Source: an uncultured Gammaproteobacteria bacterium
Lineage (GTDB): Bacteria; Pseudomonadota; Gammaproteobacteria; Steroidobacterales; Steroidobacteraceae
Direction: 5' to 3'
Assembly (NCBI GenBank): GCA_963778185.1
Contig: CAVZTF010000005.1
Coordinates: forward strand, 16,227-80,226
Length of the DNA stretch: 64,000 bases
Made by a program: the position numbers and the translations under genes. The notes beneath the pieces are model-generated. The model made no database searches and had not been told where the DNA came from. It was given only the letters and a program-made list of their open reading frames with translations. This document shows positions 3,408-41,718 of this stretch, in pieces; the first letter of the stretch is position 1, and each line of letters starts with the position of its first letter.

Positions 3408-4713
3408 TCAAGCGTTCACCGCCGCCTTCACGCCCCCGGTCAGCTCCCGCAACGCCTCCGCCACGATCCCCAACCCCTCCCGCACGATCGCATCCGACGC
3501 GGTCAGCGGCACGAGGAAGCGGATCACGTTGCCATGGAGCCCGCAGGACAGCAGCACGAGACCCTTCTCTGCCCGCGCGCTTCGTCAGCGCCTTGGTAAG
3601 GTCCGGGTCCGGCGCATGGGGATCGCCGTTCTTCACGAGCTCCATGGCGACCATGGCCCCGAGGTTGCGCACCTCGCCAATCGCCGGGATCTCCCGCTGC
3701 AGGTCGCGAAGCGACGCCACCATCATTTCGCCGATGCTCACCGCCCGCGCGCAGAGCTTCTCCTGCTCGATCACCTCCAGCACCGCCAGCGCCGCGGCGC
3801 AGGCGATCGGCGAGCCCGCATAGGTGCCGCCGAGGCCGCCCGGCCCCGGCGCATCCATGATGCTGGCCTTTCCCACGACCGCCGCCAGCGGAAACCCGCC
3901 CGCAAGGCTCTTGGCCATGGTCATGAGGTCGGGCTCGATGCCAGCGTGCTCGACCGCAAACATCTTCCCCGTGCGTGCGAAGCCAGTCTGGATCTCGTCC
4001 GCCACGAGCACGATGCCGTGCTGGTCGCAGAGCTTGCGCAGCGAGCGCAGGAACTCCGGCGGCGCGATGTAGAAGCCGCCCTCGCCCATCACCGGCTCGA
4101 TGATGATCGCCGCCACCCGCGCGGGCTCGATGTCGTACTTGAAAATGTGCTCGAGCGCGTCGAGGCTGTCCTGCACGCTCACGCCGTGATACGCGATCGG
4201 GAAAGGCGCGTGGTAGACCTCGGCCGGGAACGGGCCGAAGCCCGCCTTGTACGGCGCCACCTTGCCAGTGAGCGCCATGGCCATGAAGGTGCGGCCGTGG
4301 AAGCCGCCGCCGAAGGCGATGACGCCCGAGCGGCCGGTGTGGGCCCGCGCGATCTTGATGCAGTTTTCGACGGCCTCGGCGCCCGTCGTGACGAAGATCG
4401 CCTTCTTGGGCGTCGGGCCGGGTGCGAGCTTGTTGAGCTTCTCGGCCAGCTCCACCGCGACCGCGTACGGCGTGACCATCAGGCAGGTGTGGCTGAACGC
4501 GTCCAGCTGCGTCGCGACGGCCGCCTGCACCTTCGGGTGCAGGTGCCCGGTGTTGACGACCGCGATGCCGCTGCCGAAGTCGATGTAGCGGCGTCCCTCG
4601 ACGTCCCAGATCTCCGCGTTGCGCGCGCGCTCCACGTAGACGGGCAGCTGGTTGCCGAGGCCACGGGCGAAGGCCGCGTCGCGACGGGTCTGCAGGTCCT
4701 GGTTCCTGGCCAT
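3408..4713 (-). CDS. gabT: 4-aminobutyrate--2-oxoglutarate transaminase (class III aminotransferase); one frame break near 3575
   Basis: [62 protein letters not shown]...[17 protein letters not shown]. The C-terminus ([33 protein letters not shown]...) is in the adjacent frame. The length is 3n+1. Confidence 0.85.
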
Positions 4714-6139: not shown

Positions 6140-7339
6140 TCAGTCGGGCGAGGAGCGCGGCCGCGCCGCGCGGGGCAGGAACTCGAGCGCCGCGATCGCG
6201 CGCAGCGTGTCCCAGGACCGGCAGCCGGGGCACTGCCAGAGGAAGGTCGAGCTGTCGAGGCCGCACTCGCTGCAGCGATAGCGCGCGTGGCGCAGCACCA
6301 CGTTGCGCAGGGCACCGGCGACCGACCGCAGCTGGTCCTCGTTCGGCTCGGTGCCCACCGGCATCAGCGCGCCGGTGAGGTCGCGCAGGTCGTGGTCGGT
6401 CACCAGCAGCTCGCGCACGCACCCGAGGATGACGGGGTGGTCGTAGTAGCCGCTGACGATGGCCGCGTAGGCGAGCTCGGAACGGTTGCCGACGCCGTTC
6501 TCGAGCAGCTCGACGAGCGCCTCGTCGAACGCGCCGGTGTTGCCCGCCTGCTGCGCTGCATCGGCGAGACGCGACAGGACGACGGGCAGCAGGTGCAGGT
6601 CGCGCCGCACGACGCGACGGTAGAGCTGCAGCGCGAGCTGCGGGTCGCCCTGCATGCGCGCCACGTCGCCGCGCAGGATCGCGCCGCGCTCGAAGTCGGG
6701 CTGCTCGCGTCGGGCGCTGCGCAGGTGCTCCCGTGCGAGGTCGAGGTTGCGCTCGGCGACCGCCGCCTCCGCCATCTCGCAATAGTAGTGGGCGATGGCG
6801 AACGGCTGCTGCGGCACGCCCACGACGCGCAGTCGCTCGTGCATCGCGATCGCCTGCGGCCAGTCGTGCTGCAGCTCGGCGATGCGCACCAGGTGCGCGA
6901 GCGCCACGGCCGGCTCGCGGCCGTTCTCCGCGAGCTGCAGGAACAGCTTCTCGGCGTGGTCGTAGAGCCCCGCGCGGAAATAGTCGCGCGCGAGCTCGGT
7001 CTGCGCGGCGTCGCGGTGGCGGGGATCGAGGCCCGCGCGCTCGACGATGTGCTGGTGCACGCGGATGGCGCGATCGACCTCGCCGCGGCGGCGGTAGAGG
7101 CTGCCGAGCGCGAAGTGGGTGTCGACGGTCTCGTCGTCGAGCTCGGCGAGGCCGAGGAAGACCGCGAGCGCACGGTCGGGCTTGTCGTCGAGCAGGAAGC
7201 GCAGGCCCTCGAGGTAGCGCTCGCGGCGGCGCTTGCGCCGGCGCCTGCGGTGCTCGTTGTAGAGGACGGTGGCGGCCCAGCCGGCGGCCAGCGTGCCCGC
7301 CAGGGTGAGCCAGAACGTGCCGGCTGCGTCAGCCAGCAT
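6140..7339 (-). CDS. lapB: Lipopolysaccharide assembly protein B (TPR plus rubredoxin-type zinc finger)
   Basis: N-terminal TM helix, TPR repeats, and a C-terminal YRCSECGLDSSTFLWQCPGCRSWDT motif. It follows lapA with an 11-nt overlap. Confidence 0.9.
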   Translation of the reverse strand: MLADAAGTFWLTLAGTLAAGWAATVLYNEHRRRRRKRRRERYLEGLRFLLDDKPDRALAVFLGLAELDDETVDTHFALGSLYRRRGEVDRAIRVHQHIVERAGLDPRHRDAAQTELARDYFRAGLYDHAEKLFLQLAENGREPAVALAHLVRIAELQHDWPQAIAMHERLRVVGVPQQPFAIAHYYCEMAEAAVAERNLDLAREHLRSARREQPDFERGAILRGDVARMQGDPQLALQLYRRVVRRDLHLLPVVLSRLADAAQQAGNTGAFDEALVELLENGVGNRSELAYAAIVSGYYDHPVILGCVRELLVTDHDLRDLTGALMPVGTEPNEDQLRSVAGALRNVVLRHARYRCSECGLDSSTFLWQCPGCRSWDTLRAIAALEFLPRAARPRSSPD

Positions 7340-38058: not shown

Positions 38059-39668
38059 CAGCAGTCCTCAAGGGGTTCATCGACGTTCCCCACGGCCAGG
38101 TCCACTTCCGCTACGGCGGGAGTGGACCGCCGGTCGTCCTGCTGCACGACTCGCCCCGCTCCTCCGTCCAGCACGTGCCGACGATCGACTGGCTCGGCGA
38201 GCACTTCACGGTCATCGCCCTCGATACGCCCGGCTGCGGCAACTCCACGCCCTTGCCTGGGTCCCGACCGGCCATCGCCGACTTCTCGGCCGCGCTCGCA
38301 GCCACGCTGGAGGCCCTCGGCATCGAGCGCTGCGCAATTTACGGCGTGGACACCGGCGCCTGCATCGCCCTGCAGTTCGCAGCCGATCACCCCGAGCGCG
38401 CCGCCCTCACCGTCCTCGACGGCCTGCCGTCGCAGGAGGTCCCAGCCGGCGACGACCACCTCGATCGATGCCTGCCGCGCCTCGAGGCCACGGCGGACGG
38501 AGCGCACCTCGCCCGCGCATGGAGCCAGGTCCTCGACACTCACCGCTACCTCCCCTGGTTCCAGCGCTCGGCCGGGACGCGCCTGCAGGCGACGTTGCCG
38601 GACGACCTGCAACTGCACGAGTACGCCACGGACTTCTTCATGGCGGAGCCTGGCTCGGGCAGCGCCTGCCGGGCTGCGCTCGCGTACGAGCAGGCGCCTG
38701 CCCTCGCCCGACTTCGCACGCCCACGGTGTCCCTGTCGCGTGCGGCCTTGGATGTCGGCGCGTGGCGCGTGCGCCTGCTGCAGCTGTTGCGTGACGCCGG
38801 GCTGCCGCCCATGCGACGGCCTTCTCTGCCGGCCTCCACGGCCGGGGCCGCGCAGGCCGAGAGGCAGCGCTACGTGGATCTCGTGTACGGCCAGATACGC
38901 ATCCGGACGCGGGGCTCGGCGGGACCAGGGGCTGTCCCCACGCTGCTGATCCACGATGCTCCAGGCTCGTCCGTGGAGATGCGGGCGCTGGCCGATCGCC
39001 TGTCGCAGGACCGCGTGACGATCGCGCCGGACCTTCCAGGGCTCGGGGAATCGACGCCACTGCTCTACCCGAGCCTCGGCTCGTACGTCAGTGCCTTGAG
39101 CGAGGCGCTGGACGCGCTGCAGGTGCCGGTCGTGGACGTCGTCGCCCAGGGCCTGGGCACGGCGTTCGCCATCGCGCTCGCCGCGAATCGGCCGGCACAG
39201 GTTCGACGCCTGGCCCTGGACGCGGTGCCCTGGATCCGAAACCGTGAACGCGGGCTATTCAGGCGGCAGTACTGTCCCGGGCTGCAGCAGGACCGTCACG
39301 GCGCGTACCTGCAGGCGATCTGGGGCCAGTTGCAGGATGCCGAGGTGAGCTGGCCGTGGTTCGACCGCAGTCCTGCCGCGGCGCGAGTACGGGACCCCGA
39401 CACGGACGCCGGACAGCGCCACGCCGTGCTGGTGGACGTCATGAAGCAACTGCCCAGCTACGGCGATGCGGCGCGTGCGGCGCTGGAAGCCGCCCTGCGG
39501 GAAATTCTGCCGGGCGTCCGGCAGCCGGTCTTGCTGCTGAACGACTCGCGCGATGTGCGCTACCGGGGCACTGGACGCGTGCTCAGGAGACTGCCGGACG
39601 CGCGGCAAGCGCCTCGCCCGGCGAGCGTCGCGGAACGCTCGGCCGTGATCCGCGACTTCCTGGCTTGA
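38055..39668 (+). CDS. Tandem double alpha/beta-hydrolase-fold protein
   Basis: 537 aa made of two homologous halves: GPPVVLLHDSPRSS...ALDTPGCGNSTP...IYGVDTGACIAL and PTLLIHDAPGSS...APDLPGLGESTP...VVAQGLGTAFAIAL. ATGA overlap with etfA. Confidence 0.7.
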   Translation: MTAVLKGFIDVPHGQVHFRYGGSGPPVVLLHDSPRSSVQHVPTIDWLGEHFTVIALDTPGCGNSTPLPGSRPAIADFSAALAATLEALGIERCAIYGVDTGACIALQFAADHPERAALTVLDGLPSQEVPAGDDHLDRCLPRLEATADGAHLARAWSQVLDTHRYLPWFQRSAGTRLQATLPDDLQLHEYATDFFMAEPGSGSACRAALAYEQAPALARLRTPTVSLSRAALDVGAWRVRLLQLLRDAGLPPMRRPSLPASTAGAAQAERQRYVDLVYGQIRIRTRGSAGPGAVPTLLIHDAPGSSVEMRALADRLSQDRVTIAPDLPGLGESTPLLYPSLGSYVSALSEALDALQVPVVDVVAQGLGTAFAIALAANRPAQVRRLALDAVPWIRNRERGLFRRQYCPGLQQDRHGAYLQAIWGQLQDAEVSWPWFDRSPAAARVRDPDTDAGQRHAVLVDVMKQLPSYGDAARAALEAALREILPGVRQPVLLLNDSRDVRYRGTGRVLRRLPDARQAPRPASVAERSAVIRDFLA

Positions 39669-39683
39669 CCGGCGGCGAGACCG

Positions 39684-40166
39684 TCAGAGCTGGCCGAGGA
39701 CGTGCTCGGCGCTCGAGACCTTGAATTCGCCCGGACCTTCGACGAACAGCCCCTTCACGACGCCGTTGTCGGCGATGATGGCGAAGCGCTTGCCGCGCAG
39801 GCCCATGCCGAAGCCCGTGGCGTCCATCTCGAGGCCGAGCGCCTTCGAGTAATCGCCATTGCCATCGGCGAGCATCGTCACCTTGTCCTCGACGGCCGAG
39901 GCCTTGCCCCAGGCCTTCATGACGAAGACGTCGTTCACGGCCATGCACGCGACCGTGTCGACGCCCTTGGCCTTGAAGTCGGCGGCGTGCTGGATGAAGC
40001 CCGGCAGGTGCCGTGCATCGCAGGTGGGGGTAAACGCGCCCGGCACCGAGAACAGCACCACCTTCTTGCCGGTGAACAGCTGCTCGGCCGTGAGCTTCTG
40101 CGGACCGTCCGGGCCCGGGATCGTAAACACGCCCGCAGGCATCTTGTCACCCACCTTGATCGTCAT
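39684..40166 (-). CDS. Peroxiredoxin (Prx5-type)
   Basis: MTIKVGDKMPAGVF...KKVVLFSVPGAFTPTCDARHLPGF...VACMAVNDVFVMKAWG. Confidence 0.9.
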   Translation of the reverse strand: MTIKVGDKMPAGVFTIPGPDGPQKLTAEQLFTGKKVVLFSVPGAFTPTCDARHLPGFIQHAADFKAKGVDTVACMAVNDVFVMKAWGKASAVEDKVTMLADGNGDYSKALGLEMDATGFGMGLRGKRFAIIADNGVVKGLFVEGPGEFKVSSAEHVLGQL

Positions 40167-40204
40167 GGTCGTGGTCCTCCGAGGTCTTGTTCGAGTAAAC
40201 ACCG

Positions 40205-40233
40205 ATTGTACCTGCCGTTCGGAGCCGGCGTCG
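40205..40233 (-). promoter_or_regulatory. Candidate sigma-70 promoter of the peroxiredoxin gene
   Basis: The minus strand has TACAAT (40205-40210), with a weak -35 (CGACGC) 17 nt upstream and a GGAGGA Shine-Dalgarno before the ATG. The -35 abuts palindromic element 1. Confidence 0.35.
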
Positions 40234-40353
40234 CGGCGGGTGCCGGCTGGGGGGTCCTCCGGCGGGACGCCGTGGATCCGTCCTGGAGGCTCCGGGCGCG
40301 CCGTCCATGGCGCGCACGGCCCGCCGGAGGACCCCCCAGCCGGCACCCGCCGC
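40233..40353. repeat. Long palindromic element 1 (34-bp perfect arms, 53-nt core)
   Basis: Arm 40233-40266 is the exact reverse complement of 40320-40353. The core contains its own hairpins: CCGTG/CACGG, and GCGCGCC-GTCCAT-GGCGCGC. Confidence 0.9.
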
Positions 40354-40459
40354 AACGGCCAGCCCGACGGCGAAAGTTACTTGGACAGGCGTTAGCTGCG
40401 CCGATGGCGTTCGCCTTGCACTGCCGCAGCGGAACGCCGTGCGGCCAAAGGCGCGAAGC

Positions 40460-40587
40460 GTTGGCGGGTTCGTCCGGTCGGGGTGATCTCGACGGGCCGT
40501 GCGCGCCATGGACGGCGCGCCCGGAGCCTCCACGGATGGATTCACGGCGTCCCGTCGAGATCACCCCGACCGGACGGACCCGCCAAC
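40460..40587. repeat. Long palindromic element 2 (37-bp arms with 1 mismatch, 54-nt core in inverted orientation)
   Basis: Arm 40460-40496 is the reverse complement of 40551-40587 apart from one T/C difference. The core is the reverse complement of the element 1 core; the distal 35 nt are identical and the rest has 2 substitutions plus 1 indel. Confidence 0.9.
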
Positions 40588-40635
40588 AACGGGACGCGCC
40601 AGCGAACCGCGGCCAGCGCCCACACCGCACGCGAC

Positions 40636-41718
40636 TCAAGCCGCCGCAGGCCCCCTGGCGAACCGGGGCGCACCCCGCAAGCGCTGGTCGAGCGACTGCA
40701 GCAGCCCCTCGGTCGTTTCCCAGTCGATGCAGGCATCGGTGATCGACACGCCGTACTGCAACTGCGCCAGGTCCGCGGGGATCGACTGCTGGCCCCAGTG
40801 CAGGTTGCTCTCGAGCATCATGCCCGCGATGGAGCGATTGCCCTCGAGGATCTGGTTCGCCACGTTCTCGGCGACCAGCGACTGCAGGCCCGGGTCCTTG
40901 CTCGAATTGCCGTGGCTGCAGTCGATGACGATGCCGCCGGGCAGCCCCGCCTTCTCGAGCTCGCGCTCGCAGAGGGCGATGCTCACGGAATCGTAGTTCG
41001 GGCGGCCGCCGCCGCCGCGCAGCACGATGTGGCCGTAGCGGTTGCCGCGCGTGCGGAACACCGCGGACTGTCCCTGCTGCGTGATGCCGAGGAAGTGGTG
41101 CGGATGACGCGCCGACTGCAGCGCGTTGATGGCCACGGCCAGCGAACCGTCCGTGCCGTTCTTGAAGCCGACGGGGGTCGACAGCCCGCTCGCCATCTCG
41201 CGGTGCGTCTGCGACTCGGTGGTGCGGGCGCCGATGGCCGTCCAGGTCACGAGGTCCGACAGGTACTGCGGCATGATCGGGTCGAGCGCCTCGGTCGCCG
41301 CGGGCATGCCGATGTCGGCGAGGAACAGCAGCAGCTCCCTGGCGAGCCGGATGCCCTTCTCGACGCGGAACGAATCGTCCATGTCGGGATCGTTGATGAG
41401 CCCCTTCCAGCCGATCGTGGTGCGCGGCTTCTCGAAATAGACCCGCATCAGCACCAGCATCGTCTGCTCGACCTGCCGCGCGAGCCCGGCGAGGCGCGTC
41501 GCATACTCGCGGGCGGCGAGCGGGTCGTGGATCGAGCAGGGCCCCACCACCAGGAAGAGCCGTGGATCCTCGCGGTCGAGGATGCGCCGCAGGGTGCTGC
41601 GGCTGTGGAAGACGAACTCCTCGGCGGCCGGCGGCAGCGGCAGCGCCTCCTTGACCTGCTCCGGCGTGGGCAGCAGGTCGCTCGAAACGACGTTGATGTC
41701 TTGCAGACGCTCTTTCAT
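40636..41718 (-). CDS. aroG: 3-deoxy-7-phosphoheptulonate (DAHP) synthase, class I
   Basis: DPRLFLVVGPCSIHD...RVYFEKPRTTIGWKGLINDP...IGARTTESQTHREMASGLS.PVGFKNGTDG. The isozyme (feedback specificity) cannot be determined from the sequence. Confidence 0.9.
   Translation of the reverse strand: MKERLQDINVVSSDLLPTPEQVKEALPLPPAAEEFVFHSRSTLRRILDREDPRLFLVVGPCSIHDPLAAREYATRLAGLARQVEQTMLVLMRVYFEKPRTTIGWKGLINDPDMDDSFRVEKGIRLARELLLFLADIGMPAATEALDPIMPQYLSDLVTWTAIGARTTESQTHREMASGLSTPVGFKNGTDGSLAVAINALQSARHPHHFLGITQQGQSAVFRTRGNRYGHIVLRGGGGRPNYDSVSIALCERELEKAGLPGGIVIDCSHGNSSKDPGLQSLVAENVANQILEGNRSIAGMMLESNLHWGQQSIPADLAQLQYGVSITDACIDWETTEGLLQSLDQRLRGAPRFARGPAAA

Follow-up and report, generated by a model that had tools for sequence, protein, structure and literature searches.

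The closest described relatives of the elements treated here are the YPAL/RU-2 repeats of Yersinia. YPAL is about 168 bp long, contains internal inverted repeats, has no TA ends and is not A+T-rich; it is described as recently mobile and as co-transcribed with upstream genes, possibly with an effect on their stability, and its insertions duplicate 3-26 bp of target sequence, at or close to dyad symmetries (Delihas 2008, PMC2229807). A 168-nt sequence of RU-2, from Y. pestis CO92, is printed in Table 1b of Delihas 2007 (PMC2759123). The Rfam counterpart, Ysr224 (RF02770), is multicopy, belongs to the 20 most often annotated small RNA (sRNA) families and is temperature-responsive in Y. pseudotuberculosis (PMC9029176, PMC12112432). 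We analyzed a 64,000-nt stretch (the window) of the genome of an uncultured gammaproteobacterium of the Steroidobacteraceae (contig CAVZTF010000005.1, positions 16,227 to 80,226), in which the 469-nt spacer between aroG and prx, both on the minus strand, houses two long palindromes, named here elements 1 and 2.

The conserved core, or head, of element 2 was aligned without gaps to RU-2 of Y. pestis CO92, with 44/54 identical positions across the whole 54-nt head. Ysr224 was the only match of the Rfam search (36.6 bits and E about 1e-6 for element 2, 16.2 bits for element 1, 42.9 bits for a copy from Mixta); none of these reaches the gathering score of 70 bits, although the E-value of about 1e-6 still indicates homology, and the model consensus visibly holds the same head. 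On the basis of the RU-2 alignment and the sub-threshold Ysr224 match, the elements are, as judged by sequence homology, shorter, GC-rich, distant members of this known family, which resembles miniature inverted-repeat transposable elements (MITEs). The original prediction, made from the DNA letters, had named an ERIC/REP/MITE-like family among its candidates, and of these it is the right one; the search with the core led to 17 copies in the genome. The likeness to YPAL/RU-2 extends to the internal inverted repeats around the head, the lack of TA ends and of A+T-richness, the intergenic position just after genes, the occasional position inside reading frames and the variable presence among related genomes. 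The elements differ from the Yersinia repeats in length (121-129 nt here, 167-168 nt in Yersinia), in the host, which has 68% GC and lies outside the Enterobacterales, and in the arms, which are unrelated to the Yersinia arms. Neither PMC2759123 nor PMC2229807 mentions for YPAL a three-way junction, a wobble bias tied to one strand or loops of the CsrA type, all of which are described below, and the structure line of the Ysr224 model, drawn on the opposite (UCC) strand, has no three-way junction.

REP sequences, BIMEs and REPINs are likewise short intergenic palindromes, found after genes and often as inverted doublets. REPIN arms are conserved and the loop is free, whereas the reverse holds here; the present elements also differ from the REPIN/RAYT system in having no GTAG-type 5' motif, no replication-strand bias and no RAYT-like gene in a weak tblastn search. 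ERIC/IRU (RU-1) and the Rickettsia palindromic elements (RPE) are structured repeats of 100-150 bp as well, and RPE and RU elements can sit in frame within genes, like the copy in a ygiQ-like gene of this genome; ERIC/RU-1 differs by the absence of sequence likeness and by its TA ends and TA duplications.

The copies fold into a three-way junction, built from a copy-specific rod (P1) and two short hairpins (P2 and P3), with heavy covariation; this fold is new for the repeat. The mirrored changes in the two arms come from selection on a single-stranded fold, which is most likely RNA. We favor, with moderate confidence, the explanation that this is a non-coding dispersed repeat of YPAL/RU-2 type, in which the fold of the strand carrying GGA in its loops (the GGA strand) is under selection and presents loops of the CsrA type.

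The two elements and their fold

The features of the locus, in window coordinates, are as follows.

39684..40166, minus strand: prx, peroxiredoxin (Redoxin/AhpC-TSA; Pfam PF08534, E = 1.3e-35)
40205..40210, minus strand: -10 box TACAAT of the prx promoter, TAnnAT in relatives (spacer alignment by eye)
40229..40357, minus strand (the GGA strand): element 1, whole (repeat search, folding)
40269..40290, minus strand: P3 hairpin of element 1, GCC UCC / AGGAC loop / GGA UCCAC GGC (alignment, fold)
40292..40319, minus strand: P2 hairpin of element 1, CCG-U-GCGCGCC / AUGGAC loop / GGCGCGC-C-CGG (alignment, fold)
40358..40459, no strand: inter-element spacer, 102 nt (copy search, promoter scan)
40460..40587, plus strand (the GGA strand): element 2, whole (repeat search, folding)
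40497..40524, plus strand: P2 hairpin of element 2, hexaloop AUGGAC at 40508-40513, with its closing pair CAUGGACG
40526..40548, plus strand: P3 hairpin of element 2, GCC UCC / ACGGAU loop at 40532-40537 / GGA, bulge UUCAC, GGC; CACGGAUG
40636..41718, minus strand: aroG, DAHP synthase class I (DAHP_synth_1; PF00793, E = 8.7e-82)

The repeat search delimited arms of 41 nt in element 1 (40229-40269/40317-40357, 95%) and of 40 nt in element 2 (40460-40499/40548-40587, 95%). Within these, element 1 has perfect P1 arms of 34 bp (40233-40266 and 40320-40353) around a 53-nt core, and element 2 has P1 arms of 37 bp (40460-40496 and 40551-40587) around a 54-nt core, its sole arm mismatch being T40470 opposite G40577, a U.G wobble on the plus (GGA) strand. 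The two cores are mutually reverse complementary with 2 substitutions and 1 indel, and gave inverted matches of 43 nt (40284-40326 and 40490-40532, 98%) and 24 nt (40260-40283 and 40534-40557, 88%). The palindromes with inverted cores were thus confirmed as originally described. The two had also been called nested; this is true of each element taken singly, which is a nested palindrome, and not of the two together, as they lie side by side, 102 nt apart. In the spacer between them (40358..40459) neither a second copy in the genome nor a consensus promoter was found.

Element 2 lies 48 nt from the aroG stop codon, and its UCC strand is the aroG mRNA strand. The GGA strand of element 1 is the prx strand, and its perfect arm ends 22 nt before the -10 box TACAAT, a box that was compared by eye in the aroG-prx spacers of eight relatives (L151, L153, L156, L157, L163, L165, L201 and L152). 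With this conserved box in place, it is plausible, as suggested earlier, that element 1 adjoins the prx promoter.

Both strands of both elements fold far more stably than shuffled sequences (z = -11 to -13; 0/200 shuffles equal). The minimum free energy (MFE) is -123.2 kcal/mol for the minus strand of element 1 (z = -12.8), folding as a rod with a three-way junction, and -110.1 kcal/mol for element 2 (z = -11.75); the GGA-strand MFE folds contain the three-way junction in both elements.

The consensus fold was obtained by RNAalifold from an alignment of 103 copies. It consists of the P1 rod, the junction (A)CC, P2 with 9-11 bp, one internal mismatch and a hexaloop, a single A, P3, and GU; P3 is made of GCC/GGC plus YCC/GGR, with a hexaloop and the 3' bulge UUYAC. 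The P3 loop of element 1, AGGAC, is 1 nt below the usual length. Both sides changed in 25/29 pairs. Paired cells reached 85.7% against 59.9% after shuffling (with P2 extended by one pair), and the covariation score was 0.656 against 0.195 for shuffled alignments (0/500 reached it) and 0.12-0.30 when the partners were slid. Covariation extends to every P2 pair (7/7, 94.9% paired), and P3 alternates between C-G and U-A (67 and 35 sequences); compensated P3 variants outside this alignment change GCC/GGC to GGC/GCC and YCC/GGR to UAC/GUA. The inner pairing CCGTG...CACGG, proposed earlier for the core, is not supported by covariation, which instead supports P2 (CCG-T-GCGCGCC / GGCGCGC-C-CGG) and P3 (GCC+YCC / GGR+GGC). 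The suggestion of a structured RNA agrees with this covariation and with the strand-specific wobble bias described next.

It had been noticed that arm differences between elements 1 and 2 are mirrored in the partner arm, and this is true of the two elements and across 163 copies, which were gathered with a pattern excluding the P2 apex. Whether selection or a copying mechanism maintains the rod had been left open. For each copy the 5' arm was aligned with the 3' arm taken as its reverse complement, and every type of mismatch received the same score. Read on the GGA strand, the P1 mismatches were 210 G.U and 36 A.C; per element, G.U was in excess in 99 and A.C in 16. The bias is present in each sublineage and in all four gene contexts, and it persists among elements whose two neighboring genes lie on the opposite strand (20 against 2). 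In the orthologous copies that sit inside the ygiQ-like gene of five species, 1-7 of the 22 head-proximal pairs differ on both sides, 40/41 double-sided arm changes keep the pair, and several single changes are G.U intermediates. The wobble bias together with these compensated in-place changes means that selection acting on a single-stranded fold, specific to one strand, maintains the pairing.

The reading in which DNA copying acts instead, by homogenization in hairpin or cruciform repair or by template switching, and keeps the arms complementary in the absence of selection, is already disfavored, and we give it hardly any credence. Perfect arms do occur in 20/163 copies, including the 34/34 pairs of element 1, and the outer arm of the copy in one relative (L003) resembles the gene-end hairpin of an empty site. 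A symmetric process on a DNA palindrome is excluded as the source of the bias, since it could not yield 210 G.U against 36 A.C tied to the orientation of the core; nor are the arms generally copies of their flanks (mean score 8.8 against 8.0 for controls, the top matches being tandem copies). The strand-specific wobble count can in this way tell selection on a fold from palindrome copying, and the data favor selection on one strand.

Loop sequences and a possible CsrA connection

CsrB repeats read CAGGA(U/C/A)G, and one CsrA dimer can bridge two sites from about 10 nt apart. Both loops of the repeat, P2 and P3, read C-A-N-G-G-A-Y-G with the closing C-G pair included, which matches the CsrA/RsmA consensus CANGGANG. 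The P2 apex is CANGGANG in 122/163 copies and CAGGANG in 30/163, so that 152/163 fit, and the stem below it changes freely. The two GGA motifs are 23-24 nt apart in 150/157 copies. In element 2, P2 (CAUGGACG) and P3 (CACGGAUG) both match the loop-GGA consensus and provide two sites within reach of a dimer. The genome encodes csrA (contig C4:488115-488294), the product of which is 77% identical to E. coli CsrA (PF02599, E = 7e-25). A passage of PMC6849547 quotes the CsrA/RsmE consensus A/U-CANGGANG-U/A (Schubert 2007) and the consensus RUACARGGAUGU (Dubey 2005) from SELEX (systematic evolution of ligands by exponential enrichment), and the two free loop positions of the repeat coincide with N or R of the consensuses given there.

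Since two optimal CsrA/RsmA-type loops stand at the dimer-bridgeable distance of 23-24 nt, we propose a CsrA clamp. The GGA strand would fold into the copy-specific rod of 25-40 bp (P1), the conserved three-way junction and the short hairpins P2 and P3; a transcript containing this strand would clamp one CsrA dimer on a nuclease-resistant rod, with the effect either of titrating CsrA or of placing the neighboring mRNA under CsrA control. Binding of CsrA to the loops is suggested tentatively, as a possibility that falls somewhat short of probable, from their sequence and spacing.

The sRNA sponges CsrB, CsrC and RsmX-Y-Z share with the repeat the A(N)GGA hairpin loops closed by C-G, matching CANGGANG and RUACARGGAUGU, and here too two sites stand at a spacing that a dimer can bridge. 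The sponges have 5-22 sites, whereas each element has two, mounted on a long rod; a sponge is encoded by one dedicated gene with a GacA-dependent promoter, in contrast to 17 dispersed copies here. RsmU (sRX061) of Xanthomonas was considered as the same RNA and rejected, its primers giving GACGCGAGGATGCGTGG... and a 40-nt terminator and not the element head. Two CsrA-related sRNAs of Alcanivorax are also unrelated to the element (PMC9788540).

A classic GGA-dense sponge gene was sought in this genome, and only a (CATGGA)8 microsatellite turned up. It lies outside the window on the minus strand (C4:556864-556911, ACGGACATGGACATGGAC...) and packs 8 A-N-GGA motifs into 47 nt, more densely than any other such run in the genome.

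Copies, placement and mobility

The 17 copies of the 54-nt core in this genome (3.63 Mb, 68% GC) form six pairs and five singles, and in each copy the core is flanked immediately by arms of 25-40 bp that are particular to that copy. A pattern for the first half of the core was found in 30/36 genomes of the genus and in 0/24 genomes from other families of the same order. The second-half pattern, GGAGCCYCCANGGAYGGRTTYACGGCG, was found in more than 120 stretches among the matches listed, with hosts in Xanthomonas, Stenotrophomonas, Steroidobacteraceae, Alcanivorax/Alloalcanivorax, Marinobacter, Marinobacterium, Zobellella, Oceanisphaera, Rheinheimera, Alishewanella, Alteromonas, Nitrincola, Thalassolituus, Cellvibrionaceae and Mixta. 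All hosts share the build of a copy-specific rod and a conserved head. The median length over copies is 120 nt (5-95% range 95-163 nt), and identity is 0.8-1.0 in the core against 0.3-0.7 in the arms. The arms within the genus have a weak common consensus, ..GTTCCGGGT..GTTCGCGGGG|head, which indicates that they descend or travel with the element. E. coli genomes gave no family match, and sequence strings of the element looked for in the literature returned nothing relevant.

The pairs were considered as local duplications, an idea that we rejected because partner arms are no more alike than the arms of any two copies, and as one composite mobile unit, rejected as well, the spacers of 86-200 nt looking unrelated by eye.

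Gene strands around the copies were called at high-GC loci from the G+C content at third codon positions (GC3) and from GC1 > GC2 at first and second positions. The single elements (n = 78) have convergent neighbors in 33 cases, tandem ones in 40 and divergent ones in 5; a stop codon is usually 0-80 nt away, whichever way the element is oriented, and the median distance to the stop codon of the opposing gene is about 40 nt. As most elements are no more than about 50 nt away from a stop codon, a second role of the rod, as a hairpin at 3' ends, is probable.

A stronger form of this idea makes the repeat an ordinary 3'-end hairpin, in which only the P1 rod would work, in either orientation, as terminator, insulator of convergent genes or REP-like exonuclease barrier, and the head would be a legacy of spreading. 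The excess of convergent (33/78) and the rarity of divergent (5/78) contexts, the position 0-80 nt after stop codons in both orientations, and the reported co-transcription of YPAL with upstream genes, with a possible effect on their stability (PMC2229807), are what such a hairpin would give. We nevertheless regard this form as quite improbable. It leaves unexplained why conservation is much stronger in the head than in the rod, why the P2 loop is kept while every stem pair changes, and why wobbles are tied to one strand even with the flanking genes opposite (20 against 2). Intrinsic termination, as a GC stem followed by a T tract, was not found, there being no T runs downstream of the copies and no consensus terminator; the bidirectional terminator pair of the original prediction is not borne out, in spite of the position of the elements mostly just past stop codons.

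Four loci that are filled in congeners are empty in the present genome. Conversely, the aroG-prx spacer has no element in at least eight syntenic relatives, where the element-free spacers are 30-110 nt long and show no palindrome, which means that the arms were not present beforehand. The insertion of a small core into a pre-existing hairpin, one of the early suggestions, was rejected on this ground and because the genus arms share a degenerate consensus. At the empty sites the flanks are too diverged for placing element borders or target duplications.

We judge it unlikely that the repeat is a purely selfish MITE. In that reading the fold would be the single-stranded DNA substrate of a trans-acting transposase or recombinase, the head its recognition site and the likeness to CsrA targets a coincidence. 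The multicopy state, the differing presence between related genomes, head-to-head pairs that recall REP doublets, and the reported recent mobility of YPAL, whose insertions beside dyad symmetries duplicate 3-26 bp of target (PMC2229807), all suit such an element, as does the wobble bias, G.T being the most stable mismatch in DNA. The orientation relative to GC skew is 48 against 56, i.e., there is no replication-strand bias, unlike in elements mobilized on the lagging-strand template. A Y1 (IS200/RAYT-like) transposase, which the original prediction had proposed to look for, gave no tblastn match better than E = 1.9, a weak result as the query was approximate. The family is almost absent from plasmids (one weak match, in Marinobacter). 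The head sequence is conserved in several orders, whereas the ends recognized by a transposase usually change along with their enzyme. The compensated in-place changes in orthologues indicate selection at the locus, which a dead selfish copy would not feel, and both loops match the 8-nt consensus with their free positions in the same places.

Several further observations were made on individual copies. The copy in the ygiQ-like gene lies outside the window at C3:1339935-1340058, in frame within a 747-aa radical SAM gene (C3:1339159-1341402) and co-oriented with it, inside about 90 extra residues in the Radical_SAM_N domain; the site is shared by at least five species (orthologues in L001, L013, L027 and L108), and it recalls the in-frame insertions of RU and RPE described by Delihas and Ogata. 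In L003 (L003:1353-1659, compared with C4:442316-442444 of this genome) the outer part of the 5' arm (GCTGAAGCCTGGAGTCCGGGAG...) repeats the last part of the preceding gene, with its stop codon, 60 nt further up, and it also resembles a small hairpin at the empty site of this genome; this single case may be a long target duplication as reported for YPAL.

Upstream of prx, two metagenome relatives with Prx 89% identical have one element each, oriented like element 1 and 100-130 nt upstream of prx (L152, at about 1990-2100, and L201, at about 780-900). The arms in L152 are similar to those of element 1; in L201 the gene upstream of the element is not aroG, and its end resembles a PIN/VapC-type protein. 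The element alone may have moved here, or the prx promoter region along with it.

In intergenic DNA near several copies of this genome (for example C1:87845-87870, C2:30620-30650, C3:534670-534700 and C2:248750-248850), GCGTCAGCGC(GA) or its complement is found repeatedly, and it is present at the empty site C4:442390 too; this may be an independent intergenic motif or the site of a regulator. In Alteromonas halophila (L094:5115-5602) three tRNA genes and a near-threshold RtT RNA (42.6 bits, threshold 45) are followed by two tandem copies on the opposite strand; RtT RNA was rejected as the same thing, since it is a separate feature beside tRNA genes that has no overlap with the copies. In Xanthomonas dyei (L038) the sX9 RNA (RF02228) occurs three times (2408-2483, 4208-4283 and 6210-6285; 57-95 bits) within 4 kb of an element copy, as a second multicopy RNA family there.

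Weighing the CsrA proposal and its meaning

The following observations weigh against a selected GGA-strand RNA with CsrA-type loops, and orientation is the main problem among them. Of the elements between tandem genes, 27 have the GGA strand antisense to the genes and 13 have it sense. Adjacent copies are arranged (-,+) in 14 cases, directly in 5 and (+,-) in 0, so read-through out of a gene usually meets the UCC version first. These data do not fit a simple sense CsrA site in a 3' untranslated region (3'-UTR). The Rfam Ysr224 model likewise lies on the UCC strand. Scans of the locus for consensus promoters and terminators found none, with 0 terminator sites in 39600-41000, and no conserved sequence was found outside P1 around the copies. 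Over the whole genome there is no enrichment of CANGGANG (2631 found, 2477 expected), which leaves structure and conservation as the only ground of the CsrA argument, and CsrA does not explain the conserved bulge UUYAC and the junction bases. The G.U(T) bias would also arise from a strand-specific fold of single-stranded DNA. Upstream of P1 in low-GC hosts no conserved promoter was seen by eye.

The orientation data also bear on a sense-antisense network, in which GGA- and UCC-strand transcripts of different copies would kiss through their heads, the rods keeping each RNA folded, and would couple the fates of mRNAs. Heads that are near-identical between copies with rods that are unique, and the occurrence of both orientations after genes, point in this direction; pairs are said always to carry one copy in each orientation, and the six pairs of this genome are all (-,+) (six/six). 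With both strands acting as RNA, the wobble bias should not be one-sided, and we consider the network very improbable.

Our preferred explanation stays with the GGA-strand fold and its CsrA-type loops. A bolder extension of it, which we find doubtful, is that this mobile gammaproteobacterial hairpin repeat is a ready-made, high-affinity dimer clamp for CsrA/RsmA, with two CANGGANG hexaloops on a three-way junction mounted on a nuclease-resistant rod, acting in bulk as a distributed sponge. If this were true, the spread of the repeat would scatter CsrA sites behind genes, and the copies in bulk (17 here, about 60 in Y. pestis) would form such a sponge; it could replace the CsrB/RsmZ-type sponges, which are hard to find in Xanthomonas-like lineages.

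For genome annotation, palindromes of this kind should be masked as family repeats and not taken for terminators, sRNA genes or assembly artefacts. YPAL/RU-2 has hitherto been seen as a curiosity of Yersinia and Erwinia, and Ysr224 as a Yersinia sRNA with no known role. The head is now found nearly letter-for-letter in an uncultured gammaproteobacterium of 68% GC, in Xanthomonas, Alcanivorax, Zobellella and others. Taken together, the wide distribution of the head, the fold selected on one strand and the two CsrA-type sites produce a testable hypothesis, that the repeat may wire genes into the Csr/Rsm regulon or titrate it.

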